64,000 nucleotides of DNA from an uncultured bacterium (GCA_937930175.1 CALGLP010000015.1:132174-196173); one strand, 5' to 3'; shown: positions 21,107 to 58,889, counted from the first letter of the stretch. A program made the numbers and translations. Notes: generated from the letters alone by a model not told the origin.

Positions 21107-21128
21107 ATATAAACTCCTGTCAGAAACG

Positions 21129-36242: not shown

Positions 36243-39200
36243 TTAAAGTCGGCTAAGTTCTAAAGAACTTTTTTCCGCATCATCAGGACCCAGGCCCAGA
36301 AACACATTAAAGCTTGTGATGGGGGTGATATTGATGATGACCGGCGTAAAGCCGATGATATTTTCTAATTCTAAATTTATCTTTTCGGAATTTGCTGACA
36401 CATCAAACTTGATTCCTTCACCTTTGCTCTTAATAATGCTATCAGTGCTTTTTAGGTCAATGCCACCTGGAGCTGGAGATGAGCTTGCCTGCGATGCCTT
36501 AAATAAGTCATCGGCACTCACTAAAACATTAGGGCTAGCTAAATCTTGACTCTTAGGAATGATCGATATTGTATCAGCTGCTTTATCATTATTCTCTGAT
36601 TTACAGGTGTTATTTAATTCACAATCCGCTACTTTTCTAACCTCCTTACGCTGAGAATGACTAGTTATTTTTAAGATTGCTAACTGGGCTTGCCTGTCCC
36701 GTGTAGCATTTTGCTCTTGGCCACGAGACAATACAAAATCGGATTTCTCGTCTTTCGTCGGCATGATGGCTGTTGCTGTATCAAGAAGTATCTGCGCAGC
36801 AGTGTTTTCGTCGCCATATCTCAGCCCTGCGACTATTTCTTGATCAATTAAATTTTCCGAAAGATTTAATGTGGCCTCAGGATTCTGCCTCTCAACATTA
36901 GCAACTGGCATTGAATCCACATCTTTATCTGGAAAACGAAACTGCGGGGTAGGCATTCTTGCCTCCTGTCGCTGGGCTCCCTGCTGTTGTGCTGTCTGAC
37001 TCGTTTGTGATGCTTGCGCATTGCCTGGCAGATCGCTGATACGATAATCAAATGTTGCTTTCACGCCACGGTGCATTTGATCAGCTCCAATCGCTGCCTC
37101 AATAGCATTTACTTGCCCTGAAGTTAGCGTGACAGTCGACTCCTTAATGGTTTTCCAATTACGCCAAAAATAATCAACTTCTTCATCGCTGAGCGCTAGT
37201 CCTGCTGCATTGAGGTGACCCTTTAAGATGCTCAGAAAGTCTCTATCAACTTTATCCTGTAACGCGCTCCATACCCTTAGTAAAGCTTTGTCGGAGGTGT
37301 CGTATTCTTCGGGATGCATATCCAGCATGCGGTTTCCCTGACCGTTATAACTAGGAAGTTTATACCATTTCTTAGGGCTGCTAATATATTTTGCATTTGG
37401 TAGTTTTTGATCCCAAGTCGAACCAGGAGGTGACGATTCCCCAGGACTTTTCGTATTTTCAATCGTATCACTTCTCGGGCTTGTGTTTTGGTCGTTATCA
37501 GAATTCATACCGACGCCGAAACGCAATGTCAAAAAAAGTGCGGCCATCGGGATCAACAAAAGTAACCAGCGAAGCTTTTTGGACATCCGTGGCGGCCGGC
37601 GAACGCTAGCCACCAATCTTTCGACGCGACTTGCATCCTCCGATATGACCGCCTTCATAATTTCTCTAACTCTTCGTTGTGAAATATGCTCAGGCAGCGA
37701 CTGCTCTAGGGTCGAGGGAGTCATGACTTCACCGAACTCCTCTTGCTCCTTCACAGCCGCTTTTACATTATTACGAATATTCTTAGGAATAAAATTAATG
37801 GCATCCTTAAAAAAGATTTCCCTGGCCCACTCAGCTCTTGCCTCTGTCACCTCGCCGGGAGACATTGAATCAATCCCTGGACATTGCTGCTGAAACATCG
37901 CTTCTTCCTCATCGCTAAGTTTTTCATTTTGCGAGACCATTTCTTCCCGTGCATGCAAAAAACTACGGACAATCCGTCTGATAACATAACGCTGACTTAA
38001 GAAACGGCTTAAAACATCTGGGGTGTCCCGAAATTGCTGCTGAGCTTGGTAAACTAAACCTAACCCAAACCTATTATATTCACGGGCTTGGCTATCTTCT
38101 GAAGGTCCTTCCTGGTCATGGTTTTGAAGGTTCTCCCAAAGCTGTTCATCAGCTAGCGTCTCATTGCTGATTTGAACATTCAATTGTTCACGAATCGCCC
38201 GCATCAAAGGAGCCCACATTTCCAATGGAAAGAAACCCAAAAACTGCCGCTTACCTTCTTCTGTGTTAAAAAAGTTTGCATTATTCGAACGTATAAGGTC
38301 TTCTGCAAGTTTTCTTAAATTGTCCGGCGCCAAAAGATGTTTGACGATGTCCTCATCACATCCATCGTGCGAGGCATGAAGCTCATAGACAAGGCCAAGG
38401 CCAAAATCACTATAAGCCCTTTTCATGGTATCTTCCATTTCAAGTTGCTCGTCACGAGACGCGCCTGATTCTGCACGCGATAAAGAATAAAATATTTGTT
38501 CCGCAAGAATTTTTCCAAAAAGATCGTCCACGTAAACTATATTGAGAAATCTTTGTATGTTCTTTTCTTTTGGCTTGCTACCGCCTAGCACGGGAAGCCC
38601 TAGAACGCTTAAAGGCGCGTTATCGTGTTTTCGACTAACTAAATCTAACAATGTAAACGCCCAATAAAGATCCTTTTCAATCGTCTCAGGATTAAGATGA
38701 TTATTTGCATCAAGAAGCCCTGTAATAATTTTTATTTCAATGGTTGGAAAACTGCCAGATAAATTGATGATACGACTATGCTCCCTAACGCTACCTCCGC
38801 TAAACGGCGCTTGTTCATCTAGCACCTTGACATAAGACCCCCTCGGCTTCGTCCATGCATTACCGGATAAGGCACGCCACATAGCTTCATAAACTTTTCC
38901 CACTCTACCTAAGCGCCTTTGATCAACCTTAAGCTGTCCACCTTCCACCAAAGACTTACGACTTATATGCATATGCACACTATAAAGACCTCCAACCATG
39001 GGCCCCTCATTAAGCTTTTTAAGAATATTCTTAAACGCATCCCAGTCTTTTCGCGTGTTAAGGTTTATTTTTGTTTTTAGCTCATTAAAGTTTTCGCGCC
39101 CTTCAAGCTGCCAATCAGGAGGAACAATAGATTGAATACGTTCAATAACACGTTGTCGCTCGCTCGCTGTAAACGATTGGCCTGGATCAAGCCCAAGCAA

Positions 39201-40724
39201 TTGTTTAATATTAAACTCAAGCTCTAAAGAAAACGTGATGTCTGAAGGAAATTGTTTGAGGATGACATCCCCTGCCAAAGCGGAGAAATCCTTAGAAAGA
39301 AACGATGTTTCGAGGGCGTTCGGTGCTTCTGCCAATGATTGCCGTTGAGCACCAACACTTGTGTTAGCTGGCAATCCCGCAGCGGACTGATTGACGATAA
39401 GCGACGAAGCAGCTGGCTGAGAAAGGCTTTTCAATCGAACCTCAGCAACGCTAAGATCTCCCATAGCCTGATGACCATTCAAATCTTTTTCGTTTGCCGT
39501 TATGATGATGCTGGATCCAGCAATTCCGCCAAAACCTAGCCTCTCACCCCCTGCAAAATATTTTCGTGGAATATTTTTATTTGTATATGGGTCATATTCA
39601 ACCTTGATAAAGTTCATGACGCCTTTTTTAAAGGAATCGAGATATTGATTATAAATTTCTTGAGAGGTGGGATTTATGCTTGAAACATCGCCAATGTCCT
39701 TTTCTGCTAATGACATCTTGCTATGTACCAATTCAATTCCTTCCACCTTATTCCTATCTGCGTAGACTGTATTTAAAATGGAGTCTTTAAGCTTTGTTTT
39801 AAACCAATAGGCTAAAATGATTGCATTGTAGATTTGCCGCAATTGAGAAAAGTTTTTACCGCTGTTGACCTCTTTTTCAAGCTCAGGGATGATCATTTCC
39901 CGGACGATACTAGAAGAGATATCGGAAGGAAGAGGCTGGAGGCTAGAAGTTAGAGAAGAAACAGAAGATGGAGAATAGACGATGGAAGATGGAGCCGAAT
40001 CAGAAGAAACTTTATCGACGTTGCTTTTTCTATCTTCTATCTTCTCCCTTCTATCTTCCTTGCTTTTCTCCATTGCCACATAATCTTCTTCGATCATTAC
40101 TTTTAAGCTGGATTCCACCACAAAAGCTTTGTCGCTTTGTTCATACACAACCGCTCTTGCAGGCACAATCCAGACCTTGTTAAAGGTGTCGATAGGGATA
40201 TTGGTGGTGCCATATTGTTCATAAGCTTTTTTATAAACTTCTTTCCAAAAGACTTTCCCTTGATCTCCTTCGGGATAGATAAGAGAAGCTGTAATTTGTT
40301 TTAAAAGATAATCTTGAGCCAGCATGTCCTTGCCCATATCCGTTTGTGAAAGGGCGTCGGGGATAATCCGGTCTTTTTCGTAAGGGCTCAGGTTAACCCA
40401 CAAGTCATCTTGAGGAACGGTAAGCGAAGCCAAGAAATAACGGGCCAGCTTTTCACTTTCAGCTTTTAACTCATCACCGGCAAGGCCTGTGTTTCCGCTA
40501 TCGACAATAAAATCAAATTTAAAAGGATTGTCAGGATAAACCTTAAGACCTTTTAGCATCACCGGCACAAAGCCAGAGCTTAAGTTGACAATGGTTCCGG
40601 GAATGGGAAGATTAAAAGCAGATTGGGCTAGGGCTTTCGGGGGAATAATAGCAGTCGCCAGGAAGCAGAGAATAATTCCAAGGCAAATACCTCTAAAAAA
40701 GATATTCTTTTTAGCGCAAAACAT
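36243..40724 (-). CDS. Giant secreted protein (1493 aa), function unknown; paralog of 27915..36032
   Basis: Same signal peptide/N-terminal domain (about 70% identical over first ~230 aa), central TM segment (LLLLIPMAALFLTLRFGV), two FGLGLVY repeats, C-terminal GFTPVI motif. Confidence 0.7.
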   Translation of the reverse strand: MFCAKKNIFFRGICLGIILCFLATAIIPPKALAQSAFNLPIPGTIVNLSSGFVPVMLKGLKVYPDNPFKFDFIVDSGNTGLAGDELKAESEKLARYFLASLTVPQDDLWVNLSPYEKDRIIPDALSQTDMGKDMLAQDYLLKQITASLIYPEGDQGKVFWKEVYKKAYEQYGTTNIPIDTFNKVWIVPARAVVYEQSDKAFVVESSLKVMIEEDYVAMEKSKEDRREKIEDRKSNVDKVSSDSAPSSIVYSPSSVSSLTSSLQPLPSDISSSIVREMIIPELEKEVNSGKNFSQLRQIYNAIILAYWFKTKLKDSILNTVYADRNKVEGIELVHSKMSLAEKDIGDVSSINPTSQEIYNQYLDSFKKGVMNFIKVEYDPYTNKNIPRKYFAGGERLGFGGIAGSSIIITANEKDLNGHQAMGDLSVAEVRLKSLSQPAASSLIVNQSAAGLPANTSVGAQRQSLAEAPNALETSFLSKDFSALAGDVILKQFPSDITFSLELEFNIKQLLGLDPGQSFTASERQRVIERIQSIVPPDWQLEGRENFNELKTKINLNTRKDWDAFKNILKKLNEGPMVGGLYSVHMHISRKSLVEGGQLKVDQRRLGRVGKVYEAMWRALSGNAWTKPRGSYVKVLDEQAPFSGGSVREHSRIINLSGSFPTIEIKIITGLLDANNHLNPETIEKDLYWAFTLLDLVSRKHDNAPLSVLGLPVLGGSKPKEKNIQRFLNIVYVDDLFGKILAEQIFYSLSRAESGASRDEQLEMEDTMKRAYSDFGLGLVYELHASHDGCDEDIVKHLLAPDNLRKLAEDLIRSNNANFFNTEEGKRQFLGFFPLEMWAPLMRAIREQLNVQISNETLADEQLWENLQNHDQEGPSEDSQAREYNRFGLGLVYQAQQQFRDTPDVLSRFLSQRYVIRRIVRSFLHAREEMVSQNEKLSDEEEAMFQQQCPGIDSMSPGEVTEARAEWAREIFFKDAINFIPKNIRNNVKAAVKEQEEFGEVMTPSTLEQSLPEHISQRRVREIMKAVISEDASRVERLVASVRRPPRMSKKLRWLLLLIPMAALFLTLRFGVGMNSDNDQNTSPRSDTIENTKSPGESSPPGSTWDQKLPNAKYISSPKKWYKLPSYNGQGNRMLDMHPEEYDTSDKALLRVWSALQDKVDRDFLSILKGHLNAAGLALSDEEVDYFWRNWKTIKESTVTLTSGQVNAIEAAIGADQMHRGVKATFDYRISDLPGNAQASQTSQTAQQQGAQRQEARMPTPQFRFPDKDVDSMPVANVERQNPEATLNLSENLIDQEIVAGLRYGDENTAAQILLDTATAIMPTKDEKSDFVLSRGQEQNATRDRQAQLAILKITSHSQRKEVRKVADCELNNTCKSENNDKAADTISIIPKSQDLASPNVLVSADDLFKASQASSSPAPGGIDLKSTDSIIKSKGEGIKFDVSANSEKINLELENIIGFTPVIINITPITSFNVFLGLGPDDAEKSSLELSRL

Positions 40725-46895: not shown

Positions 46896-48008
46896 TTACG
46901 CGCAAAATGCTGTTGCGGACAAATCCGTAAGAAATCTGGCTTTCAGCAAACCTTCATCCCATTCCCCTTGGGGCGTGGAATCCCAAACAATGCCGCCACC
47001 AATGCCCATTTCGCCGTGGCTGCCTTCGAGTAATAAAGTGCGGATCGGAATATTAAAATAAAAATCATGATTCGGCGCGATATAGCCAATAGCGCCGGTA
47101 TAAATTTTACGTTCCTCGCGCTCAAGGCCTTGGATGATCTGCATCGCGCGAATTTTCGGTGCACCAGTCACAGATCCCGATGGGAAAATGGCTTTAAAAA
47201 TATCAATTATTGGCCTCTCCTTAGCAAGGACCCCTTTAACCGTGGAGGTCATTTGATATAGCGTTTGATATGGCGTGACCGTAAAAAGTTTTGGCGTTCT
47301 AATCCGATTCGCAATTTTACCTAAATCATTTCTTAATAGATCAGCAATCATTACGTTTTCGGCGCGATTTTTCTCATCATGGCCAAGCTGCCAGCCTGCG
47401 GCTACATCTGAAAGAAAATTTTTGCCTCTGGGCCATGTCCCTTTCATGGGCTCCACAACAAGCCGTTTCTTTGTTTTCTTGATCAAGCGCTCCGGAGAAA
47501 GAGAAAGAATTTTGTATTGGCCTGTTTCAAGATAGGCGGGATATGGAACTGGTTGCCGACGCAAAAGCTGCGCATAAAGATCTTGGGCGTCCCCCGAGAA
47601 AGAAAAATGCAACTTAATGCAATAGGTGATCTGATATACATCACCCGAGGCAATGGCCGCTCGGATGTGAGCAATTGCCAAGGCATATTCCTCTTTTGAA
47701 ATATTGAGAGAGAACTCATGAACGGCAAAATGCGTCGCTCTTGATCCCTTGAAAGCAAAAGACTCTGGCCTTCGATACGCGCCCATGAGCAAAAGCGGAA
47801 AAGCGTATTCTTGATCTTGATGAAAAACTGTTTCAAAGCAATACCCTGCCTCATATGAAAGAAACCCAGCAATATAAAATCCCTCCCGGCGTAGCGCTTC
47901 CAGTTGATGAAAGGCATCCGCCAATTGCGAAGGATTTTTACAGCAAACAATGACGTCTGGCTTTGTGAAGAAAAAAGGCTTTTGTTCAAACTGGATCAAT
48001 ATATTCAT
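46896..48008 (-). CDS. pabB: Chorismate-binding enzyme, aminodeoxychorismate synthase component I-like
   Basis: Start at MNILIQ; SPERL, MKGTWPRGK, SGSVTGAPK, GIGGGIV motifs; small size (370 aa) favours PabB over TrpE. Confidence 0.75.
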   Translation of the reverse strand: MNILIQFEQKPFFFTKPDVIVCCKNPSQLADAFHQLEALRREGFYIAGFLSYEAGYCFETVFHQDQEYAFPLLLMGAYRRPESFAFKGSRATHFAVHEFSLNISKEEYALAIAHIRAAIASGDVYQITYCIKLHFSFSGDAQDLYAQLLRRQPVPYPAYLETGQYKILSLSPERLIKKTKKRLVVEPMKGTWPRGKNFLSDVAAGWQLGHDEKNRAENVMIADLLRNDLGKIANRIRTPKLFTVTPYQTLYQMTSTVKGVLAKERPIIDIFKAIFPSGSVTGAPKIRAMQIIQGLEREERKIYTGAIGYIAPNHDFYFNIPIRTLLLEGSHGEMGIGGGIVWDSTPQGEWDEGLLKARFLTDLSATAFCA

Positions 48009-48310
48009 GGAGCCCCACAACTAAAGTCGCGGTACCTTTCTGTATGTGATCCTTCTTCGCTCCAAAACTTTTATTTGGGAGCTTCGCAGGTTTCATCCGC
48101 CTTTCCAAAAAAGGGCGAACATCCGCCGAAGCACTGGTGCCACCATTTTCGCATTTCTCAACGTGCAAGCCCGTGGTATTCTGCGTAGGCGGATGACCTT
48201 TGGGCAGGTCTGGGTGCCCCTCTTTTAGCGAAGGGCTCAAGGTCATGACGCTGTCTTTAAAGATTTATTCTCCCTGGTCCACAACAACGCAGGGATTCTT
48301 TTGCAACACA
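48009..48310 (-). promoter_or_regulatory. Conserved structured 5' leader (repeat family 2, copy 1) upstream of pabB
   Basis: About 185-nt core (48014..48196) ~85% identical to 51033..51219; contains GGUACCGCG (T-box-like), CUUCGG tetraloop, duplicated GGCGGAUG able to pair with upstream CAUCCGCC; variable hairpin differs between copies but remains a hairpin. Confidence 0.45.
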
Positions 48311-48369: not shown

Positions 48370-48401
48370 GGGAGCCCCGCGGGAATACCCGCGGGGCTCC
48401 C
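48370..48401. terminator. GC-rich perfect palindrome hairpin (14-bp stem) downstream of rho
   Basis: GGGAGCCCCGCGGG-aaua-CCCGCGGGGCUCCC, 24 nt after rho stop; U-tract imperfect. Confidence 0.4.
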
Positions 48402-48424
48402 TAAAACCAACTTTCAATACTTTT

Positions 48425-49390
48425 CTAAGAATGCGAACTGATAGCGGCAAGCAAATCGTTATTAGTAGGATACACCTTTAATTTTTCAATCAGAGCCTGC
48501 GCGGCTTCAATCGGCCCCAAACCCGCAAGAGCACAACGCAACTTTTTCACCTGAGCCATTTCCTCTTTGCCAAGCAACAATTCTTCCTTGCGTGTTCCAC
48601 TTTTGGAAATATCAATAGCTGGAAATATGCGACGATTGGAAATATCACGCGAAAGAAAGATTTCCATATTCCCTGTTCCTTTAAACTCTTCAAAGATAAC
48701 TTGATCCATGCGGCTACCAGTTTCCACCAAGATCGTTGCCAGGATCGTCAGAGATCCTCCGTTCTCGATGTTACGCGCCGATCCAAAGATGCGTCGAGGA
48801 ATCTCAAGGGCGCGGGCATCCACGCCTCCAGACAAGGTCCTACCGCCCGAAGGCCGTTCCGCATTATGAACACGTGCCAGCCGCGTCAAGGAATCAATCA
48901 AGACCATCACATTTTCCCCTAAAGAAACTTCGCGGTACACCTGCTGCATCAAGGCATTGGCTGTGGCCACATGATGATCATAGGGTTGATCCGATGAAGA
49001 CCAGTGGACCTCCGCGGATATGTTGCGTCGGAAATCTGTGACCTCTTCTGGCCGTTCATCAATCAATAAGCAATACCGCTTAACGGTCGGACAACTTTGA
49101 GCCACAGCCTGACAAATATGCTTAAGAAGCGTTGTTTTGCCTGAACCAGGTGGCGCGACGATGAGCCCCCGCTGCCCCATGCCAATAGGACAAATCAAAT
49201 CCATCACCCTCATCGTGAGCTCAGGAAGACCCTCCTCGAGGCGCATGCGTGGCGAAGGATCAAGGGCAACCCCAGCAAAGAAACGCCCTTCGTCTTCATT
49301 GACTATTCTTCGCGGCTGAGGACGCGAAGACGGGTGACCCCTATGACGGGCCTGGTCATGTTTTCTTGAATGATGGGAAAATGGTTTCAT
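48425..49390 (-). CDS. rho: Transcription termination factor Rho, lacking most of the N-terminal RNA-binding domain
   Basis: 321 aa; Rho ATPase domain (GQRGLIVAPPGSGKTTLL, FPAIDISKSGTRKEELLL, Q- and R-loops) but only ~46 aa precede the connector; in-frame stop 4 codons upstream of ATG; His/Arg-rich N-tail. Confidence 0.8.
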   Translation of the reverse strand: MKPFSHHSRKHDQARHRGHPSSRPQPRRIVNEDEGRFFAGVALDPSPRMRLEEGLPELTMRVMDLICPIGMGQRGLIVAPPGSGKTTLLKHICQAVAQSCPTVKRYCLLIDERPEEVTDFRRNISAEVHWSSSDQPYDHHVATANALMQQVYREVSLGENVMVLIDSLTRLARVHNAERPSGGRTLSGGVDARALEIPRRIFGSARNIENGGSLTILATILVETGSRMDQVIFEEFKGTGNMEIFLSRDISNRRIFPAIDISKSGTRKEELLLGKEEMAQVKKLRCALAGLGPIEAAQALIEKLKVYPTNNDLLAAISSHS

Positions 49391-49554
49391 GGAGCTTTTA
49401 AATCAATTTCTTTTAGGACAACGCGAAGTTTAAACGATTGCAGCGGACCGATGCCTTTAACATCTCTATTCTATCTCCTATTCCTCCGTTAGAAAGCTTT
49501 TTCTCATTTTAATCTTCAAGCGCCTATAGGTCACCGTACAAACAAATGGTTTTT

Positions 49555-50424
49555 CTACAAACCTCTAAATATTTCTGGCCTCAAGCTGATATCCCCTTCA
49601 AGCGCAGCCTCCAGAGTTCTTAACAACATCGCTTTATCTTTAGGGAGTGTCCCTTCCAATGCAAGATGGTTTGACGCGTGATTTGAACGAAAAATTGTTT
49701 TCTGGAGATCAATCCCTTGCATGATTTCATACGATTCCCTCAACAACTCCATCACGTTTAATTCCTCAAAATCACCACGCTCAACTTCCCGCGCTAAAGG
49801 TGTTCCAGGAATAACCATAAGCGAAAGAAAAGATAAATATCTTGGCTGCATTCGATTCAATGCCGCAATGGTACCTTGAACGTGATCCTTGGAATGTTTT
49901 CTGCCACCCAAACCAAGCAAGACAATAACCGAAGACTTAATCCGTGCTTTTTCTGCCCTGTGAACCGCTTGAATCATTTCCTCAACGCTGGAAGACTTTC
50001 CGCATCGATCCAAAACATCCTGGCTCCCGCTTTCCAAGCCCATATAAAGGAGGCTTAGTTTATGCGCAGAAAGCTCTTCTAACTCGCGATCGCTTTTTCG
50101 CGTGATATGACATCCATTGGCGTAACTTGAAACACGCGCTAATCTGGGGAAAGCCTGCTCTAAATTTTCCAGGATGGGAACAAGCTTGCTATTGCTCAAA
50201 ACAAGGGCATCGCCATCCATCAAGAAAACGCGTCTAGTCTCTTGATGCCGACGGGCATGCGCATAAATATCCGCGCTTATGACCTTGGGATCTTTGATGC
50301 AAAAAGGTTTGCTTTTGTAGGCACCGCAAAAACTACAATGATCAGCGGAGCATCCAAGCGTAACCTGCAGGAGAAAACTATCTGCCTCTGAAGGTGGCCT
50401 TATCACAGGTTCTACGATCGGCAT
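49555..50424 (-). CDS. Radical SAM protein with non-canonical CX4CX2C cluster motif
   Basis: 289 aa; GCSADHCSFCG, glycine-rich SAM motif region, partial TIM barrel; start overlaps stop of upstream TPR gene. Confidence 0.7.
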   Translation of the reverse strand: MPIVEPVIRPPSEADSFLLQVTLGCSADHCSFCGAYKSKPFCIKDPKVISADIYAHARRHQETRRVFLMDGDALVLSNSKLVPILENLEQAFPRLARVSSYANGCHITRKSDRELEELSAHKLSLLYMGLESGSQDVLDRCGKSSSVEEMIQAVHRAEKARIKSSVIVLLGLGGRKHSKDHVQGTIAALNRMQPRYLSFLSLMVIPGTPLAREVERGDFEELNVMELLRESYEIMQGIDLQKTIFRSNHASNHLALEGTLPKDKAMLLRTLEAALEGDISLRPEIFRGL

Positions 50425-51020
50425 TACATTGTTCCTTTAACTAATATTTCAATCTTGGCATCAATCTGCTCTTTGATCTTAAGCTGTGACAACGTCAGGA
50501 GCTGCGCTGCTTTTCTCAAAGCGCTAATGGCTTTCTGCACTTCTTTAAGATGTATATACGTATCCGCTAGATTTTCAAAAGTCACAGCCCGGTCTGGCTC
50601 AAGAGCAAGGGCCTTTTCAAAGAAAGGCAGGGCTTCTTGATGTTGGCCCAATTGATTGAGCAACCATCCTTTGTTGTGATAAATATTGGCATAATCCGGT
50701 TCGCTTGCGATTCCTTTGTCAAAATACAAGAAAGCCTCTTGCACCATGCCAAGCTCAATCATGCACAAAGCACGATCATTGTACGCCGCGCCATCACAAG
50801 GATTGTGCTTGATCGCCAAATCTAAATAAATCATCGCGTCGCGATCATTTCCCTCAATGATTTCTCTCTGGGCCTTAAAATACGCTATCTCTGAAGACCA
50901 GTCCCACTCTTGGGCAATCCGCAGGCCTTCGGCGACTAACTTTTTGGCCGCGGATAAATCTCCATACGTTATGGCCTCATCGAGTAAATGTCTTAATGTA
51001 GTAAGGCCAATAATCGCCAT
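50424..51020 (-). CDS. TPR repeat protein
   Basis: Start at MAIIG; 4-5 TPR units (AYNDRALCMIELGMVQEAFLYFDKGIASEPDYANIYHNKGWLL…). Confidence 0.7.
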   Translation of the reverse strand: MAIIGLTTLRHLLDEAITYGDLSAAKKLVAEGLRIAQEWDWSSEIAYFKAQREIIEGNDRDAMIYLDLAIKHNPCDGAAYNDRALCMIELGMVQEAFLYFDKGIASEPDYANIYHNKGWLLNQLGQHQEALPFFEKALALEPDRAVTFENLADTYIHLKEVQKAISALRKAAQLLTLSQLKIKEQIDAKIEILVKGTM

Positions 51021-51245
51021 AGGATGAAGCCCCACGACTAAAGTCGCGGTACCTTTCTATATGTGATCCCGCTTCGTCCGCCATTGATTCGGTGGCGGAC
51101 TTCGCAGGATTCATCCGCCTTTCTAAGAAAAGGGCGAACATCCGCCGAAGCGGCAATGCTGATACCATTTTCGCATTCCTCCACGAAGAACCCTGTTGTA
51201 TCCTGCGTAGGCGGATGAAGCTCTCGATATGTTCATGGTGGGAAG
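51021..51245 (-). promoter_or_regulatory. Conserved structured 5' leader (repeat family 2, copy 2) upstream of TPR/radical-SAM operon
   Basis: See copy 1; ends at GUGGGGCU just upstream of the ATG. Confidence 0.45.
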
Positions 51246-51248
51246 AAA

Positions 51249-51290
51249 ATAAGGGGCCCGGCGTTACACAATGCCGGGCCCCTTATGATT
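51249..51290. terminator. Rho-independent terminator (bidirectional) after cspA
   Basis: AAGGGGCCCGGC-N10-GCCGGGCCCCUU hairpin followed by U-run on both strands. Confidence 0.7.
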
Positions 51291-51298
51291 TTTTGAAG

Positions 51299-51502
51299 TT
51301 ATATCTTTACAACGTTTGTTGCTTGAGGACCCTTAGGGCCATCTTCGACTTCAAATTCAACTGCTTGTCCTTCAGCTAAAGACTTAAAACCTTCACCCTG
51401 AATTGCCTTGTGGTGAACAAAACAATCTTTGCTGCCATCATCAGGGGTTATAAACCCATAACCTTTTTGGTCGTTGAACCATTTTACTTTTCCTTTAGTC
51501 AT
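51299..51502 (-). CDS. cspA: Cold-shock protein (CspA family)
   Basis: 67 aa; [19 protein letters not shown]1 and VHHKAI RNP2 motifs. Confidence 0.9.
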
Positions 51503-51678
51503 TACGCACTACCTCCTTCCAATAGAATTTAGTAAATCGAGGTAGAAAAAAACGCAAGGCAGTAAATCTTGCTCCTTGCGCATATGACTATCTACTCACC
51601 TATTTACCATTGCGTTTAATTTACTTCACAGCTCGACATTTGTCAACAAAATTTCTTAAAGCTCTTCTTTCAAGACCA

Positions 51679-53580
51679 TTACACGCCAAAACCCTCAAAA
51701 GCCTCCAGATATTCCCAGCGCTCATAGGCCTTAAAAATTTCTTCACCCAAGGCCTCGACTTTAACCTGCGCGTGATCCGCGCCCTTGGGATCCCTACGAT
51801 AAAAATCAACATCCGCTAAAAGCTCATAAAGCTTGCCCTGCTCTTCTTCTAACTTTTCGATCAAGGCGGGCAACTCTTGCAATTCCTTTTTTTCTTTAAA
51901 AGAAAGCTTTCTAAAAGCGTCTTCTTTTTTTATCAGGCTTTCTTGTTTCACGGCTTTGCGCATAGGCCCAGCTTCTTTAACCTTTGCCGCACGCTGTGTC
52001 AACCAATCATCATAACCGCCAGGATATTCATACACCTCGCCGTGACCCTCAAGCACAATCGTTGAGGTCACCACATTGTTTAAAAACGCGCGATCATGGC
52101 TTACCAAAATCAACGTGCCAGCATATTCCATCAGAATTTCTTCCAACAGCTCCTGGGTCTCAATATCCAAATCGTTGGTCGGCTCATCCATGACCAAAAA
52201 GTTAAAAGGCTTTGTAAAAAGACGTGCCAAGAAAAGACGATTGCGCTCACCACCGGACAAGACCTTGATAGGCGTGCGCGCCCTATCAGGGGTAAACAAG
52301 AAATCCTGCAAATAACCAATGATATGCCGCGGCTTGCCATTAATCGTAACGGTGTCGCCGCCCTTGGTCACATTTTCAATCACCGTTCGTTCTTCATCAA
52401 GCTGTTCGCGCAATTGATCATAATACGCAACTTCCAGATTGGTCCCAAGGCGAGACTTACCTTTGTGGGGAGCAAGCTCCCCCAAAAGAATACGTAGCAA
52501 AGTCGTCTTACCAGAACCGTTGGCGCCAATCACGCCAATCTTATCCCCACGCATGATCTGCGTCGAGAAATCACGAATGATACACTGCTCTCCATAACTA
52601 AAACCTAAATGCGAGGCCTTGACCACCAAGTGTCCCGACGACCCTGTCTCTTGCGCGCGCATGCGTGCCTGGCCAATTTGCTGACGCTGCGCCTTCTTCT
52701 CTTCCCGCATACGCTCAAGGGCTTTCACGCGGCCTTCATTGCGACTACGTCGAGCTTTCACCCCTTTGCGGATCCAGACTTCTTCCTCAGCCAACTTTTT
52801 ATCGAAATCTGCACGCTGAACTGTTTCCACGTCCAGGGCCATCTGTTTACGCTCTAAAAATGTTTGATAGTCACAAGACCAACTAAAAATCTTACCGCGG
52901 TCAAGCTCAATAATGCGCGTCGCTAAATGCGTCATGAACATGCGGTCATGGGTGACAAAAAATAAGGTGCCCGCATAATTTTGAAGAAAAGCTTCTAGCC
53001 AGTTAATGGTATCAATGTCCAAATGATTGGTGGGCTCATCCAAAAGAAGGATCTCAGGGTTAATGATAAGAGCCTTGGCTAAAAGCACGCGTCGCTTTTG
53101 CCCTCCCGAAAGAGTTTCAAAAGCCGCTTCTCCATCGAGTTTCATATGAGACAACATCACTTCAACCTCCATGTTAAGATCCCAACCCTTGGTCGCATCA
53201 AGCTCAGCTTGCAAGCGATCAAGTTCTTGCATCAATTCAGCAGTGTGCTCACTATGAAGCCGATGGGTAAGATGATGATAATCGCTTAGAAGTTTGGCGC
53301 GCTCGCCCAAACCAGAAAAAACAATATCAAACACCGTGCCTTGCACATCCTTGGAAACCTCTTGGGGCAAGTAGGTCACTTTCACACCTTTTTGATAAAT
53401 CAATTCTCCCTTGTCAATTTCAACCTCACCGGCCACGACCTTCATCAAGGTTGTCTTACCAACACCGTTACGACCAATCAAGGCAACACGCTCTCCAGGC
53501 TCAAGCTGTAAGCTTAATCCGTCAAAGACAAGCGGCCCCCCAAAGGCCAGGGAAATTTCTTGCATACTAATCAGCGCCAT
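51679..53580 (-). CDS. ABC-F family ATPase (Uup-like), tandem ABC domains plus C-terminal coiled coil
   Basis: Start set at MALISMQEISLAFGG (matches Uup N-terminus MSLISMHGAWLSF); two Walker A (GRNGVGKTT, GANGSGKTT) and two LSGG signatures. Confidence 0.85.
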   Translation of the reverse strand: MALISMQEISLAFGGPLVFDGLSLQLEPGERVALIGRNGVGKTTLMKVVAGEVEIDKGELIYQKGVKVTYLPQEVSKDVQGTVFDIVFSGLGERAKLLSDYHHLTHRLHSEHTAELMQELDRLQAELDATKGWDLNMEVEVMLSHMKLDGEAAFETLSGGQKRRVLLAKALIINPEILLLDEPTNHLDIDTINWLEAFLQNYAGTLFFVTHDRMFMTHLATRIIELDRGKIFSWSCDYQTFLERKQMALDVETVQRADFDKKLAEEEVWIRKGVKARRSRNEGRVKALERMREEKKAQRQQIGQARMRAQETGSSGHLVVKASHLGFSYGEQCIIRDFSTQIMRGDKIGVIGANGSGKTTLLRILLGELAPHKGKSRLGTNLEVAYYDQLREQLDEERTVIENVTKGGDTVTINGKPRHIIGYLQDFLFTPDRARTPIKVLSGGERNRLFLARLFTKPFNFLVMDEPTNDLDIETQELLEEILMEYAGTLILVSHDRAFLNNVVTSTIVLEGHGEVYEYPGGYDDWLTQRAAKVKEAGPMRKAVKQESLIKKEDAFRKLSFKEKKELQELPALIEKLEEEQGKLYELLADVDFYRRDPKGADHAQVKVEALGEEIFKAYERWEYLEAFEGFGV

Positions 53581-53682
53581 AAATGAGGTCACAATTTTAC
53601 GAACGCCCCAGCTTCCTCGAAATATTTCCATAGAGAGCTGGGATAGTCCCAATTTTCCCAAAAGTCAAATCAAACTGTAATT

Positions 53683-54064: not shown

Positions 54065-55189
54065 TTATCTAAAATCTCCGAATATTTCCATCATTCTCTT
54101 CGATGGGTTCGATACTCTATTTGCATAGTGCTTAAGAAGCGTATCCATGGAGCTATGCCCTAGATCATACATAAGCCGATAGGGAGGCTGACCACACGCT
54201 AGGCGCCAACTAGCAAAGGTTTTTCTGAATTGGTGAAGATCCTTATCTTGATTCTCTGTTAGCTTAATGCCGGAAGCCTTAAAGATATCATCCAGAAAAT
54301 CTCTGTTTAAATGAGCATCCAAAGGCTTGCCGGTTGGCTTTAAAAAAACATGTCCTTCGTTTTGGCGAATCTTCTTCAACAATTCAAAACTAATCTTTGG
54401 AATGTAGATCGTTCTGGCCTTGCTATACTTTGGATCAAAAGTACTATCCTGAAAAATGTTATACTGCTGATTCTTCCAATCAATGTGTTGCCATCGAAAA
54501 TGAACATACTCCATGAGGCGCATCCCCATCTGTAAGGCTACCATCAGAAGCGTATAGTATGGAAAAACATTGTATTGTGATTGCGCTCCCTTCGCGCCTT
54601 CTATAAGGTCCAATATTTGTTTTTCAATAAAAGGCTCAACAATCTTACCTTCTGCTGATAGTCCATATCCAATGACAGGATTTTTAGTTAATGTCCTTTC
54701 TTTTACGAGAGCCACAAAGAAAGCAGAAAGACTTTTGAGGTAGTCAATCCGGCTGATGGGCTTAAGGTCCTTTTTCAAATACTCGCCAAGATTATGCCCT
54801 ATATCAATAATGTGATCTTCGGTTATGTCCTCAACATACGGGGGCAGAAACTTTGCTAGAAGAGATATATCTTTTATATATGATCGGATGGTTTCGGGCT
54901 TTAAAGGTTTGGCTTGTGTTTCCCATCGCTTCCTTGCCTTGATAATAGCTTGAGCCATAGGTGTCTTGCTTGAAACCTTTTCGCCATTCATCTTCAAGCT
55001 TCGATCAAGCAATACAACGGCATCATCGCGATTGGTGGCCTCGCCCTTAGAGTTATATACTACCCTGAAAAGCTTGCCGGATTCATCCCTTAAGCTTTCC
55101 TTTTTGCGCTCTGGCCTTCCATCAGGACCGCGTTCTTCCCAAAGCTTGTACCAAATGCCGTTATTAGGCGTTAGCCAAGGTTTTTTCAC
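54065..55189 (-). CDS. Tyrosine-type site-specific integrase
   Basis: 374 aa; catalytic R…HxxR…Y pattern (FRKTFASWRL, GHSSMDTLLKHY). Confidence 0.85.
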   Translation of the reverse strand: MKKPWLTPNNGIWYKLWEERGPDGRPERKKESLRDESGKLFRVVYNSKGEATNRDDAVVLLDRSLKMNGEKVSSKTPMAQAIIKARKRWETQAKPLKPETIRSYIKDISLLAKFLPPYVEDITEDHIIDIGHNLGEYLKKDLKPISRIDYLKSLSAFFVALVKERTLTKNPVIGYGLSAEGKIVEPFIEKQILDLIEGAKGAQSQYNVFPYYTLLMVALQMGMRLMEYVHFRWQHIDWKNQQYNIFQDSTFDPKYSKARTIYIPKISFELLKKIRQNEGHVFLKPTGKPLDAHLNRDFLDDIFKASGIKLTENQDKDLHQFRKTFASWRLACGQPPYRLMYDLGHSSMDTLLKHYANRVSNPSKRMMEIFGDFR

Positions 55190-55373
55190 AAACTAGCCCC
55201 TGAATTTCTCTTCTTTGAAACAATCTTCTCCCTAAGACCTTTTTTCCTTTAGGAATCTTACCCGACTTAATTCCCCTGTAAAAAGCTGATGTTGAAGTTC
55301 TGAGAAACGCTATTGATTCGTCTGCGGTCCATAGCTGAGCATCAAAATTTATCTGAATATTCTCCTTAACCAT
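55164..55373 (-). CDS. Excisionase/AlpA-like small DNA-binding protein
   Basis: 69 aa; wing-helix pattern AFLRTSTSAFYRGIKSGKIPKGKKVLGRRLF; sits immediately upstream of int. Confidence 0.5.
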   Translation of the reverse strand: MVKENIQINFDAQLWTADESIAFLRTSTSAFYRGIKSGKIPKGKKVLGRRLFQRREIQGLVCEKTLANA

Positions 55374-55589
55374 TTAAAACCTCCTTTTAAAATCCATCCT
55401 TCTTATTTTTATTCCTTCTTGGTTTTCCTTTTTATCCCTTTCAAGACATTCTTTGTGAAAATAACAAGGACTAAACCACGTATTTTCGGCTTCATCGTCA
55501 AAAAATCCGCGAAAATCAACAGCAAGATCGCACTGCAGAATAGGCTTATGGCAATATTCACAGGATACTTTTTTATTTTCGTCAACCAT
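55374..55589 (-). CDS. Small Cys-rich (zinc-binding-like) hypothetical protein
   Basis: 71 aa; C-x2-C…C…C-x-H…C spacing. Confidence 0.4.
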   Translation of the reverse strand: MVDENKKVSCEYCHKPILQCDLAVDFRGFFDDEAENTWFSPCYFHKECLERDKKENQEGIKIRRMDFKRRF

Positions 55590-55608
55590 TTAAAACCTCC
55601 TTAGTTTG

Positions 55609-56289
55609 TTATTTCTCGTTTAACATGGCATCTACCTTTTTCCATCTTTCCCTGTACCCTGAACGGATCCGTGGGCGTTTATCCCCGGCGCCTTCTGGCC
55701 GGCCAAGCTTCTTTCCTTCTACCTTTGAACGGGCCATGCCGGCTTTCACGCGGGAAGAAATTTTTGCTCTTTCGACTTTAGCTAGCCATGCAAAGATAGT
55801 CATTAAAAGCTCTGTCGTTGGATTATCCTCAGCCGTATTGAGCCAGGATTCAGTATAGGATAGAAGCGCAACGCCGTTACGCGTTAGCCTCTTAATATAT
55901 CCGCAAACGTTGCTCCATCCTTCCCTTGAGAAGCGATCCATGCTCCAAAAGATAAGCCATTGAAATAACATCTTGTCTGAATCATTGAGCATCATAGAAA
56001 AGGCCTTGCGATCACTCTTGGAGCCGGAAGCCTTATCTCCATAGATGCGGATTGATCTCTCTTCGCCCGTTTTCTTATTCTTATAGATTTTCTCAAGAAA
56101 CCCATCATCGTCTAAGCACCTTAGCTCCCTTGATACAGAATTATATTCCGCGAAGATATTTATCTCTTCCCACTCACTAGTTAATTCTAGCTTGGCCTGG
56201 GCAAACGTAAGCAAAGGGTTTAGCTGATTGTCCAATGATTGCCCCTTATTTTCCGTTGAGACGCGGACGTATAAAGCTATTGTTTTCAT
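55609..56289 (-). CDS. Serine recombinase (resolvase/invertase family)
   Basis: 226 aa; N-terminal ALYVRVST catalytic Ser motif and DRFSR; C-terminal basic HTH. Confidence 0.75.
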   Translation of the reverse strand: MKTIALYVRVSTENKGQSLDNQLNPLLTFAQAKLELTSEWEEINIFAEYNSVSRELRCLDDDGFLEKIYKNKKTGEERSIRIYGDKASGSKSDRKAFSMMLNDSDKMLFQWLIFWSMDRFSREGWSNVCGYIKRLTRNGVALLSYTESWLNTAEDNPTTELLMTIFAWLAKVERAKISSRVKAGMARSKVEGKKLGRPEGAGDKRPRIRSGYRERWKKVDAMLNEK

Positions 56290-56496
56290 TTATTCCTCGC
56301 TTGTAAGATTATTTTTTTGTAAGAATTCTCTAAAAGCAATCCTTGGCTCGTTTCGCTTTTGGAGTAGTTTTTCTTTTTCCTTCTCTACCTTGTGCAACTT
56401 CCGGCGAGCCTCAGCAATTCTGTTCTTAAGTGGCACACCTTTCTCATCAACTTCCTCTTTGTCCGGCTTATTGTTCTCTGAACTTGGCATCTTCAT
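56290..56496 (-). CDS. hypothetical protein
   Basis: 68 aa; basic/coiled; abuts recombinase start. Confidence 0.35.
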   Translation of the reverse strand: MKMPSSENNKPDKEEVDEKGVPLKNRIAEARRKLHKVEKEKEKLLQKRNEPRIAFREFLQKNNLTSEE

Positions 56497-56737
56497 TTTC
56501 CTTTTTTAATTGTTCGTTTAACTCCCATTCCTCGATTTTGTCCGCGATCTCTTCAACACTCCTTCGCGCGTCAACATAGCTACACAACGCCTCAAACATC
56601 CTTTGCTCGTGATCAATGGCCGTCTTAACTACTGAATCCATGCCTTTAGTAGTCTTTTCAAATTTTTCCCTGGCTACATCAAGCATCTTTTGAGCTAACA
56701 TAAGGCCATCGCGGATCTCTTGCTCCCTATCCATCAA
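56468..56737 (-). CDS. hypothetical protein
   Basis: 89 aa; helical, acidic. Confidence 0.35.
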   Translation of the reverse strand: MMDREQEIRDGLMLAQKMLDVAREKFEKTTKGMDSVVKTAIDHEQRMFEALCSYVDARRSVEEIADKIEEWELNEQLKKENEDAKFREQ

Positions 56738-56855
56738 TAGTCTCCTCTTTCAACTTGTGAAAGTAGATCATAATAAGCTTCCTCATCCATATTGAAATTG
56801 AAACCTTTGGAACTTTTCTTCCGGGTAAACCATTTGATCATTTTTTTAATGGCGC

Positions 56856-57167
56856 TCATAATGCCTCCTTCTTTGGAATTACTACCGATGTTGTTCTCTG
56901 CGGTTCGTTTATTAGGGCATCAATATCAAAAACTCTCCCACAAGGACATTGGAAGGCTTCTAAGTTTCCAACATCAACAAATTTCGCATCAAATATTCTT
57001 GCGAAGATTTCCAACCCCTCAAGCTCACCATCCATTTTTTCGCTAAAATCCAATTCCCTTCGCTCATCCTTCGACATACCAGAAATATCTTCCTGTCTTT
57101 GCTTTGGGATAAAAAATTGATAATATTTTCCGCACTTGCACTTTTTTAAACATCCTGTTGCCATCAT
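56856..57167 (-). CDS. hypothetical zinc-ribbon protein
   Basis: 103 aa; CKCGKYY … CPCGRVF paired Cys motifs. Confidence 0.4.
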   Translation of the reverse strand: MMATGCLKKCKCGKYYQFFIPKQRQEDISGMSKDERRELDFSEKMDGELEGLEIFARIFDAKFVDVGNLEAFQCPCGRVFDIDALINEPQRTTSVVIPKKEAL

Positions 57168-57460
57168 GCCTCCTCAAGTTCGTTTTCGATTTCTTCGACT
57201 CTTTCCAGACAGCGTCTTTTCTCGTGTTCCAAGAGATATTTTTTGTATTTTATAAATGCTTCTGACAACACCCAAAATGCGTTCATGCAAGAACCCCGAA
57301 GGTATAAATATGTTCTCCATTCTTCCTCGTCTCTGTTTAAAGTGTCCAAAGTTTCGAGGATAGCTCCATCCCCACGCAAATCCTTAACCAAACACGTAAA
57401 AATATTTTCGTTTTTTGATTCTTCAACCATCCACCTGAAAAATGGTTTTGTTTCTTTCAT
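57164..57460 (-). CDS. hypothetical protein
   Basis: 98 aa; start overlaps downstream ORF by 4 nt. Confidence 0.35.
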   Translation of the reverse strand: MKETKPFFRWMVEESKNENIFTCLVKDLRGDGAILETLDTLNRDEEEWRTYLYLRGSCMNAFWVLSEAFIKYKKYLLEHEKRRCLERVEEIENELEEA

Positions 57461-57472
57461 TTAATTACCCTC

Positions 57473-57859
57473 CTAGTTTTGTTGTTCTTTTAATTTCTTG
57501 GCGCACTCTGAACAGATAGCCTGTTCCTTTTCGTTAGACTTATCCATGCAATCATCGTGAACGAAAACAAAAGGCTCATCAAACTCTGGAAACGTTGTAA
57601 GCCTTCTCTTTTCACTATCATTACATCTAAAGACAGAAAAATCCTCATACTCTCTGACAGGAAATCTACACTCTGCGCAAGCTCCGAGAATGTCTCCATC
57701 TTTTTTATGTGTCTTGCTCTCAAGTAATTCCTTGTATTGCTTTAAACATTTTCCTTTGTGAACACTTATGCCGATAATGTCATGGACAACTTCTCCTTGA
57801 TCTTCTTTCTCAATTTCAAATTCACAAATTGGGCAAACATCTTTATATTGTGCGCTCAT
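57473..57859 (-). CDS. hypothetical Cys-rich protein (multiple CxxC)
   Basis: 128 aa; CPICEF, CAECRF, CSECAKK. Confidence 0.4.
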   Translation of the reverse strand: MSAQYKDVCPICEFEIEKEDQGEVVHDIIGISVHKGKCLKQYKELLESKTHKKDGDILGACAECRFPVREYEDFSVFRCNDSEKRRLTTFPEFDEPFVFVHDDCMDKSNEKEQAICSECAKKLKEQQN

Positions 57860-58157
57860 TTAATCCTCCCATTGTTTTGCAAAATGTTTCATAATGCCTC
57901 AAACAACTTTCCTTGATATATTGGCTCCACTCATCCAATTCTTTTTTTATTTCTTCTCGACTATACCCATCCACGACACAAGCCCCAACTAATGATGAGC
58001 GAAAAACAATCGAAATTGCGTTTAATACTTCTTCGCTGACGAAATCCTGTCCTTGGCCTTTATGCTCAAGGCAAAAGTTCCCAACGATCTCCAGAAGTTC
58101 ATCTATTAACTTTCCTCCAACTTCTGTTTGTCCATCTGGTCTATATGCTTTGATCAT
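57843..58157 (-). CDS. hypothetical protein
   Basis: 104 aa. Confidence 0.35.
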   Translation of the reverse strand: MIKAYRPDGQTEVGGKLIDELLEIVGNFCLEHKGQGQDFVSEEVLNAISIVFRSSLVGACVVDGYSREEIKKELDEWSQYIKESCLRHYETFCKTMGGLNERTI

Positions 58158-58334
58158 TTAGCCCTCGCTTTTCGTAATAGGGGCCCTGGCCGGCATCACG
58201 CACCCGTATTGACATTGCCACGAACCGCGAACAGCTCTCCCGTTCTTAACACAACTCCCTTTAACAGCACCGCAAACTTTGCATTGCTTAATTCCTAAAT
58301 CCTTATCAACTAACTCCATTACCTTTTTACTCAT
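58158..58334 (-). CDS. small Cys-rich hypothetical protein (58 aa, below ORF-track cutoff)
   Basis: Hand translation MSKKVMELVDKDLGIKQCKVCGAV…; fills gap between two minus-strand ORFs. Confidence 0.3.
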   Translation of the reverse strand: MSKKVMELVDKDLGIKQCKVCGAVKGSCVKNGRAVRGSWQCQYGCVMPARAPITKSEG

Positions 58335-58358
58335 GCTGACCCCCTTTCGCTTTTAAGA

Positions 58359-58562
58359 TTATTCTGGTTTAGATCCATAACGTAACTCTTCCTGGGTAAC
58401 TCCTAACGCATTGGCCAACGTGCTAAGCTCATAGTCAGTAGGAGCAGATCTCCCGGTTTCTAGCCGGCACAACCGGGCCTCTGTAATACCTGTTTTTTCC
58501 TGGAGCCCAAACTGTGTTAGATCATTTCGCTTGCGCGCCATCCTAAGTCCTGGTAACTTCAT
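58359..58562 (-). CDS. XRE-family HTH regulator (Cro-like)
   Basis: 67 aa; LTQFGLQEKTGITEARLCRLETGRS HTH; AAGGAGGTG RBS. Confidence 0.7.
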   Translation of the reverse strand: MKLPGLRMARKRNDLTQFGLQEKTGITEARLCRLETGRSAPTDYELSTLANALGVTQEELRYGSKPE

Positions 58563-58837
58563 TTAAATCACCTCCTTTATTAAAAAATTTGTTTTGCAGT
58601 TTTAAACTTTAAAAAAATGGCTCTACGATAAGCCACAATCAACGATCTTTGGACAAGCCATATCCTAGCACTCCCAAAAATCTGTCTTTCCTCGACGAGA
58701 AACCCAATACCTGATAAAGAACAATATTTTAAAACTGAACTGATTTGAACTATTTAGATGTATGGTATCACTTAAGATATTGTCTGTCAAGATTATTTTT
58801 GAACCGAAGTGAACTGATTTGATTTCTTAATTTAGAT

Positions 58838-58866: not shown

Positions 58867-58889
58867 CTTCTATGATAAATTGGAAAACA

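Follow-up and report, generated by a model that had tools for sequence, protein, structure and literature searches.

A conserved Rho-family protein that lacks the N-terminal RNA-binding domain in an uncultured bacterium and its relatives

Transcription termination factor Rho is defined mechanistically by two RNA sites, and its N-terminal primary site picks the transcripts for termination. What, then, is a rho gene that encodes no such site? The question is raised by a 64,000-nucleotide stretch of DNA from an uncultured bacterium (GCA_937930175.1 CALGLP010000015.1:132174-196173; hereafter "the window", meaning the whole stretch analyzed), in which an initial annotation, made from the sequence alone, had recognized a Rho factor with a missing N-terminus and had taken it for either a decaying gene or an unusual variant with a different mode of RNA recruitment. 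We found that the open reading frame (ORF) at 48425-49390 is a real gene that encodes a complete Rho ATPase/translocase domain behind a short tail, and that the entire N-terminal domain (NTD) of canonical Rho is absent, that is, the helix bundle and the oligonucleotide/oligosaccharide-binding (OB) fold in residues 1 to ~130 of Escherichia coli Rho. We assign a probability of roughly 0.6 to the reading that this gene is a functional, naturally NTD-less member of the Rho family, most likely a hexameric RNA translocase that loads RNA without a pyrimidine-specific primary site.

The Rho ATPase domain of the window protein is ~50% identical to residues 139-413 of E. coli Rho. The protein scored 380.7 bits against the NCBIfam Rho model PRK09376 (NF006886; cutoff 315), so the NCBI Prokaryotic Genome Annotation Pipeline (PGAP) would name it Rho, and 368.3 bits against the full-length Rho model TIGR00767, below the cutoff of 509.45. 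The alignment to NF006886 occupied model positions 137-412 of 413, and the NCBIfam Rho models align to the protein over their C-terminal two thirds only. Rho chains in the PDB gave the same picture, with query residues 43-314 corresponding to E. coli residues 139-413 (E = 1e-85 to 1e-90). Membership in the FliI, type III secretion system or F1-type ATPase families was not supported, as the protein reached at most 86 bits against family cutoffs of 380-750.

On the N-terminal side, homology to E. coli Rho starts at residue 36 of the window protein, equivalent to E. coli residue ~131 in an explicit alignment. A Pfam scan matched ATP-synt_ab alone (residues 60-264). Rho_N (PF07498) gave no Pfam match in the window protein at E<=1, while the positive control P0126 matched at 8e-14; the primary RNA-binding OB fold, Rho_RNA_bind (PF07497), was likewise not matched in the window protein, while the controls P0126, P0125 and P0208 were. 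Because the Rho models and alignments begin only at the connector, the entire NTD is missing. The upstream gap, which runs to the radical-SAM (S-adenosylmethionine) gene, is closed in the rho frame: the translation reads '...KRN*FKSS-MKPFSHH', with a stop 4 codons before the ATG and several further stops above it. The NTD of E. coli Rho gave no tblastn match in this 164-nt gap or elsewhere in the 64-kb window, and a hidden Markov model (HMM) built from 14 canonical NTD sequences gave none when run against the window and ~0.5 Mb of related loci translated in all six frames. Nor did a separate, "split" NTD gene adjoin the short rho in any locus examined. On the translation of the gap and the tblastn and HMM searches, a hidden or frameshifted NTD was rejected. 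Within the gap, the one weak sigma-70-like match (49534-49506) was not better than in shuffled sequence, and an Rfam scan of the window returned no match relevant to rho.

These results bear directly on the initial annotation. Its assignment of the ATPase domain to Rho, the in-frame stop, the length of the gap and the His/Arg-rich character of the tail are all borne out, and only the ATPase part of the Rho HMMs was matched. The N-terminal loss is also real; its extent, given there as about 90 residues including most of the OB fold, was underestimated, since the whole NTD is gone.

The motor, in turn, is intact. Compared with E. coli Rho, every catalytic and RNA-contacting motif is present (Table 1), with only conservative Lys-to-Arg and Thr-to-Ser changes, and the C-terminal helices are retained as well. 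All motor residues are invariant in 98 aligned clade members, and the Q-loop, R-loop and C-terminal region are as highly conserved in sequence as in canonical Rho. In the connector, F37, P45, R48, L51, E52 and G54 are invariant in the same number of sequences. The P-loop Gly occupies the position of E. coli K181, which we take to be a bicyclomycin-pocket site, and the change may alter bicyclomycin binding. AlphaFold2, run with the 98-sequence alignment, gave a model with a mean predicted local distance difference test (pLDDT) score of 89, in which a helix at residues 32-39 opens the Rho fold and pLDDT exceeds 90 from residue 31 on; the Q-loop is lower (64-67), as expected of a flexible loop. 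The top Foldseek matches of this model were E. coli Rho chains (TM-score 0.85, root-mean-square deviation 1.5 Å, ~50% identity over ~285 alignment columns), and their span agrees with the C-terminal-domain span of the sequence alignments.

The tail that precedes the connector (MKPFSHHSRKHDQARHRGHPSSRPQPRRIVNEDEG) has an isoelectric point of 11.3 and a net charge of +4, with 7 Arg, 5 His and 4 Pro among its 35 residues, and shows no homology to any Rho NTD by Pfam, by tblastn with the NTD or by alignment to E. coli Rho. For residues 1-30, AlphaFold2 gave a pLDDT of ~50-64 without secondary structure, so that this segment is predicted to be disordered and to contain no cryptic OB fold. Across 111 clade members, tail length ranges from 6 to 81 aa with a median of 39, and the median net charge is +4; the composition is 17.8% R, 12.6% P, 9.3% H and 9% S, and 73 of the tails open with M-x-(x)-F/Y. 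The short forms of Gammaproteobacteria open with 'MTRK.L.LK' instead. The tail diverges several-fold faster than the core (proportion of nonsynonymous differences, pN, 0.31-0.50 versus 0.09-0.19), with its composition kept.

The gene is neither an assembly product nor an isolated case. Eight or more contigs, from six or more independent samples (ERZ724081-84, SRR3330208, SRR3330211), carry the identical ORF with the same flanks. Its best 120 relatives in a search of 5.8 billion proteins are 67-87% identical and 290-380 aa long, and all of them are ATPase-only: their precomputed Pfam domains include PF00006 and generic P-loop families, with Rho_N and Rho_RNA_bind in none of them. Those with a name are called Rho and come mostly from Candidatus Omnitrophica/Omnitrophota, and the Omnitrophota proteins named Rho among these closest 120 matches are all short. 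Comparison of the window gene with four relatives gave a core pN of 0.09-0.19 against a saturated proportion of synonymous differences (pS) of 0.73-0.82, with a ratio of nonsynonymous to synonymous rates (dN/dS) of ~0.04 or lower; the core is under very strong purifying selection. Of the two options initially offered, decay is thus contradicted by the contigs, the 120 relatives, the low pN and the intact motifs, and the variant architecture stands. It belongs to a whole conserved clade and is not a one-off, and the different recruitment mode we infer from it.

A scan of the GTDB species representatives found the same architecture in 15 loci (L001-L015), with further matches in two Elusimicrobia metagenome-assembled genomes and, unexpectedly, in more than 60 marine Gammaproteobacteria. 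The titles of the 15 loci name Omnitrophota or, where the records are third-party ones, "uncultured Planctomycetes", "uncultured bacterium" or "Eisenbacteria". In a neighbor-joining tree of the ATPase domain, the short forms of Omnitrophota, Elusimicrobia and Gammaproteobacteria are monophyletic (bootstrap 98), with the gammaproteobacterial sequences nested beside Elusimicrobia and canonical Rho forming a separate cluster. The separation is also visible as a gap in score: among 1.84 billion cluster representatives, members of the short-Rho clade reached 374-387 bits and all other Rho representatives at most 320. The clade is marked by its ATPase-only layout, by identities of 60% or more across phyla, by monophyly and by the connector motif F..G.A.[DN]PSPR.RLE.G, and the window protein shares these traits. 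Among canonical Rho sequences, the closest representative (P0126) comes from Firmicutes. The ATPase-only form, common to all close relatives found, appears to be the standard Rho homolog of Omnitrophota. The gammaproteobacterial short forms, found in genera that include Marinobacter, Halomonas/Vreelandella, Marinomonas, Colwellia and Glaciecola, are 314-320 aa long and are 60-68% identical to the window protein and ~46% identical to E. coli Rho.

The search of the cluster representatives also brought out further ATPase-only Rho lineages outside the clade (P0121, P0127, P0192, P0262, P0267 and P0128). All but P0127 carry strongly Arg-rich low-complexity N-terminal tails (e.g., MGRRRRGKRKGRNRNRNQQ...), as expected if a basic disordered region replaces the primary site. 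The combination of a lost primary site and an acquired basic tail thus recurs in independent ATPase-only Rho lineages. P0127 belongs to "Candidatus Sericytochromatia", a lineage related to Cyanobacteria, which have been reported to lack Rho. One of the outside lineages occurs on contigs of 4.4-4.9 Mb.

We then compared the window protein with the known kinds of Rho. It shares with canonical Rho (E. coli type, Type 1, TIGR00767) the RecA-type ATPase domain, Walker A/B, catalytic Glu, Arg valve, Arg finger, Q-loop, R-loop and C-terminal helices, and differs in that a 35-aa basic disordered tail replaces the Rho_N and Rho_RNA_bind NTD and in the change of K181 to Gly. Type 4 or group B Rho, exemplified by Fusobacterium nucleatum (PMC11347177), also has a shortened N-terminus and falls outside the canonical cluster, and Type 4-like lineages group near other ATPase-only forms in our tree. 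However, Type 4 Rho lacks Rho_N and keeps Rho_RNA_bind (P0125, P0208), whereas the window protein lacks Rho_RNA_bind and does not belong to this type. A third comparison is with the short Rho paralog NF041509 ([quoted passage not shown]; 360-aa model), to which the window protein aligns over positions 79-359. It scored 326.1 bits against a cutoff of 628, and the first 78 model positions have no counterpart; two gammaproteobacterial short forms also fall below the cutoff, with 316 and 331 bits. NF041509 Rho2 is a different short lineage. Finally, Rho of Bacteroides thetaiotaomicron, Mycobacterium tuberculosis and Micrococcus luteus likewise carries an Arg-rich low-complexity segment on the N-terminal side, and disordered basic insertions in Rho are reported to raise RNA affinity or drive condensation (PMC12360218; PMC11347177). 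In those factors the insertion lies within a complete NTD, whereas the tail of the window protein, at 35 aa and with no OB fold, stands alone.

How such a protein might work can be outlined as follows. The RecA-type ATPase domain would assemble a Rho-like hexameric ring, which would move 5'->3' on RNA through its central secondary site (the Q- and R-loops), driven by ATP. Because the primary site is absent, with neither a helix bundle nor an OB fold bearing YC-dinucleotide pockets, the protein cannot recognize rut sites in the canonical way. The crown-like recognition of YC dinucleotides in rut sites by canonical Rho lies in the NTD (PMC12360218), and as rut recognition resides wholly in this missing domain, RNA must reach the central channel by another route. 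One candidate is the lineage-variable, positively charged disordered tail, which might grip RNA non-specifically through electrostatic contacts, by analogy with Rho of Bacteroides and of actinobacteria, in which basic disordered insertions increase the affinity for RNA. Others are ring closure assisted by the KOW domain of NusG, which lets E. coli Rho act on poor rut sites and contacts its C-terminal domain (PMC7819879), loading while bound to RNA polymerase (RNAP), and a CspA-type OB-fold protein acting in trans, as the linkage to csp described below might suggest. The data establish the domain architecture, the intact motor motifs, the fold, the purifying selection, the spread across the clade and the independence from assembly; that the protein forms hexamers, translocates on RNA and serves in termination, and what the tail and partners contribute, are points that we infer.

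Several points weigh against a functional, NTD-less translocase. The survey of Moreira et al. (2024; PMC11347177), the most detailed one, distinguishes Types 1-4, regards a functional Rho as one that combines RNA-binding and ATPase domains, and sets ATPase-only sequences aside as "Rho-like"; the same paper reports that E. coli Rho without its first 27 N-terminal residues no longer binds RNA. In the literature, we found no biochemical or genetic data on any ATPase-only Rho. Three clade members (L064, P0026 and P0095) have just 6-15 residues ahead of the connector, the protein of L064 opening with MANYSREPKSAFLSG and having a stop 2 codons upstream; with some members almost tail-less, the tail cannot be a general RNA-loading device. 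At one gammaproteobacterial locus (L070) the short form lies 4 kb from a canonical rho, the product of which shares 78% identity with its E. coli counterpart, and here the short form is a paralog. Another short rho (L109; NZ_CP048880.1, 6917-7876) lies on plasmid pB of Spartinivicinus ruber, a phage-plasmid with capsid, terminase and holin genes. The gammaproteobacterial loci suggest that their copies are accessory and apparently mobile, which leaves room for a non-termination or modulatory role.

The window protein, having one Rho domain, the ATPase, falls within the definition of the "Rho-like" class in that survey, and the ATPase-only architecture is thus already cataloged. The class is a catalog label for presumed non-functional sequences from RefSeq complete genomes, and the main text contains no treatment of Omnitrophota and no analysis of conservation, clade or context. 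A 2025 review does not mention ATPase-only forms, and Rho is not discussed in the Omnitrophota literature. We found no publication on the conservation or structure of the clade, its status in Omnitrophota, the mobile gammaproteobacterial paralog or the recurrent neighbors.

Comparative studies judge "functional Rho" by the presence of the primary site, and genome surveys in which these lineages count as devoid of a functional Rho may be in error. A perfect motor without a primary site, kept across a large conserved clade, would imply either rut-free targeting, through the tail, NusG, RNAP or Csp-like partners, or a motor re-used for another RNA task. Both options are relevant to the debated question of how Rho locates its substrates, and the occurrence of the clade in cultured Gammaproteobacteria makes the question testable. 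If Omnitrophota have no canonical rho, a whole phylum would run on a Rho without a primary site; if canonical rho is present too, the short form would be an ancient, widely transferred paralog.

This second case corresponds to a possible, though on our assessment doubtful, alternative, in which a canonical rho lies elsewhere in the genome and the short form makes mixed hexamers or acts as a specialized second translocase. Mixed hexamers, which have been proposed for species with two rho genes (PMC11347177), would carry fewer primary-site pockets and could thereby tune rut specificity. The short gene that lies with a canonical rho on L070 belongs to the same clade as the window gene, and the phylogenetic distance of this clade from canonical Rho also speaks for a paralog. 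In Omnitrophota, by comparison, the short rho sits in a conserved housekeeping context (neighbors include groEL, smpB and dnaE) that is chromosomal and unlike the mobile contexts in Gammaproteobacteria, and the Rho-named proteins of this phylum among the closest 120 matches argue in the same direction. Neither a canonical rho nor any NTD-like sequence turned up in the window's 64 kb or in ~0.5 Mb of flanks from Omnitrophota-type loci, which counts only weakly, being a small fraction of a genome. Even if a canonical rho were present, the short gene need not be a remnant: on L070 an intact, conserved short form adjoins canonical rho, so a paralog would not imply a pseudogene, and the initial annotation was too strong in equating the two.

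It is improbable, in our view, that the protein is no termination factor at all and serves instead as a Rho-derived translocase for RNA decay or remodeling, R-loop removal, or a mobile-element or phage task. The domain that targets Rho to nascent untranslated RNA through rut recognition is gone, and the surroundings of the gammaproteobacterial gene would suit such a role. On the Spartinivicinus phage-plasmid it lies among lysis genes, between holin genes and small ORFs. One locus (L028) holds two short-rho copies, at 9779-10873 and ~16306-17364, beside IS21 genes; L016 is a further locus with a mobile context, and one copy adjoins a HigB/HigA-like toxin-antitoxin pair. A DEAD-box helicase gene is near the short rho in 18 of the gammaproteobacterial loci fetched, Halomonas/Vreelandella included, and lies immediately downstream on the opposite strand in 4 of the 4 loci inspected, that is, in a convergent arrangement. 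However, the Q-loop, R-loop and C-terminal region are conserved as in canonical Rho, and the context in Omnitrophota is that of a chromosomal housekeeping gene. PADLOC returned generic P-loop matches only for the short rho, and the IMG/VR viral contigs contained only 11 matches, six of them at most 25 bases from a contig end. On the PADLOC and IMG/VR results, a defense-system or phage origin was rejected as a general explanation, despite the one copy on a phage-plasmid.

Finally, the idea that the gene is a decaying remnant of a full-length rho, or that a sequencing or assembly frameshift conceals the NTD, as the initial annotation had allowed, has in its favor only the missing NTD and the stop 4 codons above the start and is next to impossible given the repeated, independent assembly of the same ORF (at least 8 contigs, at least 6 samples), the gap closed in frame with NTD-like sequence in no frame, the ATPase-only architecture of all 120 closest relatives and the very strong purifying selection on the core.

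Table 1. Features of the short rho gene and its neighborhood in the window. Residue numbers refer to the window protein unless E. coli is named.
Feature	Position	Strand	Description
Short (ATPase-only) rho CDS	48425..49390	-	ATG start, 321 aa + stop; from the ORF list
N-terminal tail, residues 1-35	49286..49390	-	'M-K-P-F' start, Arg/His/Pro/Ser-rich low complexity, then acidic NEDEG motif
Connector, residues 36-54 (RFFAGVALDPSPRMRLEEG)	49229..49285	-	First segment homologous to canonical Rho, E. coli ~131-155
Walker A / P-loop APPGSGKTT, residues 79-87	49130..49156	-	E. coli K181 replaced by Gly
IDERPEEV, residues 110-117	49040..49063	-	Catalytic Glu and Arg valve, E. coli E211/R212
Walker B region VLIDSLTRLAR, residues 163-173	48872..48904	-	E. 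coli D265, S266, R269
Q-loop RPSGGRTLSGGVD, residues 179-191	48818..48856	-	Secondary RNA-binding site; K283R, T286S relative to E. coli
R-loop ETGSRMDQ, residues 223-230	48701..48724	-	Secondary RNA-binding site; K326R relative to E. coli
KSGTRKEELL, residues 263-272	48575..48604	-	Holds Arg finger, E. coli R366
Intergenic region upstream of rho	49391..49554	-	164 nt, stops in rho frame, too short for NTD
Radical-SAM gene	49555..50424	-	Directly upstream of rho
Tetratricopeptide repeat (TPR) gene	50424..51035	-	Between csp and rho
csp, 67-aa cold-shock-domain protein, CspE/CspA-like	51299..51502	-	1.9 kb upstream of rho, same strand; CspE 120.9 bits, cutoff 120
ABC-F ATPase Uup	51679..53661	-	NCBIfam Uup 803.9 bits, below equivalog cutoff 900

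Among the neighboring genes, csp recurs near the short rho in related genomes. Of 28 Omnitrophota-type loci, 5 (the window, L007, L093, L088 and L096) have a csp gene no more than 3 kb from the short rho and on its strand, in differing arrangements, and none was found in the remaining 348 kb of flanks (binomial p = 0.003, post hoc). The adjacency to cspA reported initially therefore holds and extends to other loci, and the csp product is a possible functional partner of the short Rho. In a far-reaching form of this idea, Omnitrophota and relatives would have no canonical Rho and would terminate transcription with a two-part system, in which a primary-site-less motor is served by a free CspA-type OB-fold protein, in many cases encoded next to it, that captures RNA in trans. 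We hold this to be quite unlikely; if true, it would amount to a "split Rho", with an OB fold in trans doing what the fused cold-shock-like OB fold does, and a possible model for the origin of the fused factor. The csp gene and its 5' leader (51251-51700, minus strand) scored 70.6 bits against the Rfam cspA thermoregulator RF01766, with a gathering threshold of 78 and the match clipped on its 5' side by the edge of the searched region.

In many Omnitrophota, uup lies directly upstream of the short rho, often with overlapping stop and start codons (L001, L003-L006, L090, L092 and L095). In the window, csp and the TPR and radical-SAM genes separate the two, in an order unique to this strain. The radical-SAM/TPR adjacency noted initially is thus present, and yet it is specific to this strain, as these genes stand beside rho in no other locus examined; for this reason a functional link between them and rho was rejected. 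The TPR and radical-SAM genes are a strain-specific insertion into an otherwise common uup-rho arrangement. Directly upstream of uup, an island resembling an integrative element or prophage (~54065-59400) contains an integrase gene (54065-55189), a resolvase gene (55609-56289), small ORFs and helix-turn-helix (HTH) genes, and it may explain the local rearrangement that parted uup from rho in this strain.

In 11 of the 28 loci (L001-L007, L013, L089, L090 and L092; e.g., L090:11043-11273 and L089:2938-3162), the short rho has beside it a gene for a basic protein of ~75 aa. This gene is mostly downstream of rho and is upstream in L089, whose Rho is 83% identical to that of the window. The consensus of the protein is ...QPLD.LM...GLSNH.LV.AST.QL.HK.VQK.RKGRRLT...K.LNAL....F..RDLFNY, and its family has more than 5000 members, all "hypothetical", from Omnitrophota where named and without a Pfam match. 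The AlphaFold2 model (pLDDT 86) shows a five-helix fold resembling the HTH proteins Cro, lambda repressor and C.AhdI. A role as an RNA adaptor was rejected, since the window does not encode the protein and the model is HTH-like; on that model, a DNA-binding regulator is more likely. In L093 and L097, where the short Rho is nearly tail-less (296 and 301 aa), the place of this HTH protein is occupied by a conserved ORF of ~110 aa directly upstream of rho (L093:9508-9843, L097:9597-9929); the two ORFs are 51% identical to each other, and no Pfam family is recorded for them.

The region around rho also contains a direct repeat of ~195 nt whose two copies (48007-48205 and 51024-51222, both on the minus strand) are 80-91% identical and form the leaders immediately upstream of the TPR/radical-SAM/rho unit and of a pabB-like gene. 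In both, the segment 'UCAUCCGCC' is able to pair with either of two downstream 'GGCGGAUG' segments, one giving a terminator-like hairpin, GGCGGAUGUUCGCC, followed by a U-run; in a second hairpin, the sequence differs between the copies and the pairing is kept. The repeat looks like an attenuator or riboswitch-type leader. It had no Rfam match and, among the sequences compared, was seen in contigs of this strain only. Starting 23 nt past the rho stop codon, a perfect 14-bp GC-rich hairpin (GGGAGCCCCGCGGG-uauu-CCCGCGGGGCUCCC, 48371-48402) has no U-tract on either strand.

Farther away, two giant ORFs lie side by side on the minus strand (27915-36032, 2705 aa; 36243-40724, 1493 aa). Both carry a repeat of 300 nt (73% identical) and purine-rich repeats of 53 nt, and Pfam has no match for the product of 1493 aa. 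Giant proteins have been reported as typical of Omnitrophota (bioRxiv 10.64898/2026.06.07.730766). A V/A-type ATPase operon occupies ~14499-21863 on the minus strand, with the A subunit at 18188-19915, the B subunit at 16880-18175 and an I-subunit-like gene at 14499-16262, and its A subunit is the sole other tblastn match to the Rho ATPase in the window, a weak one.

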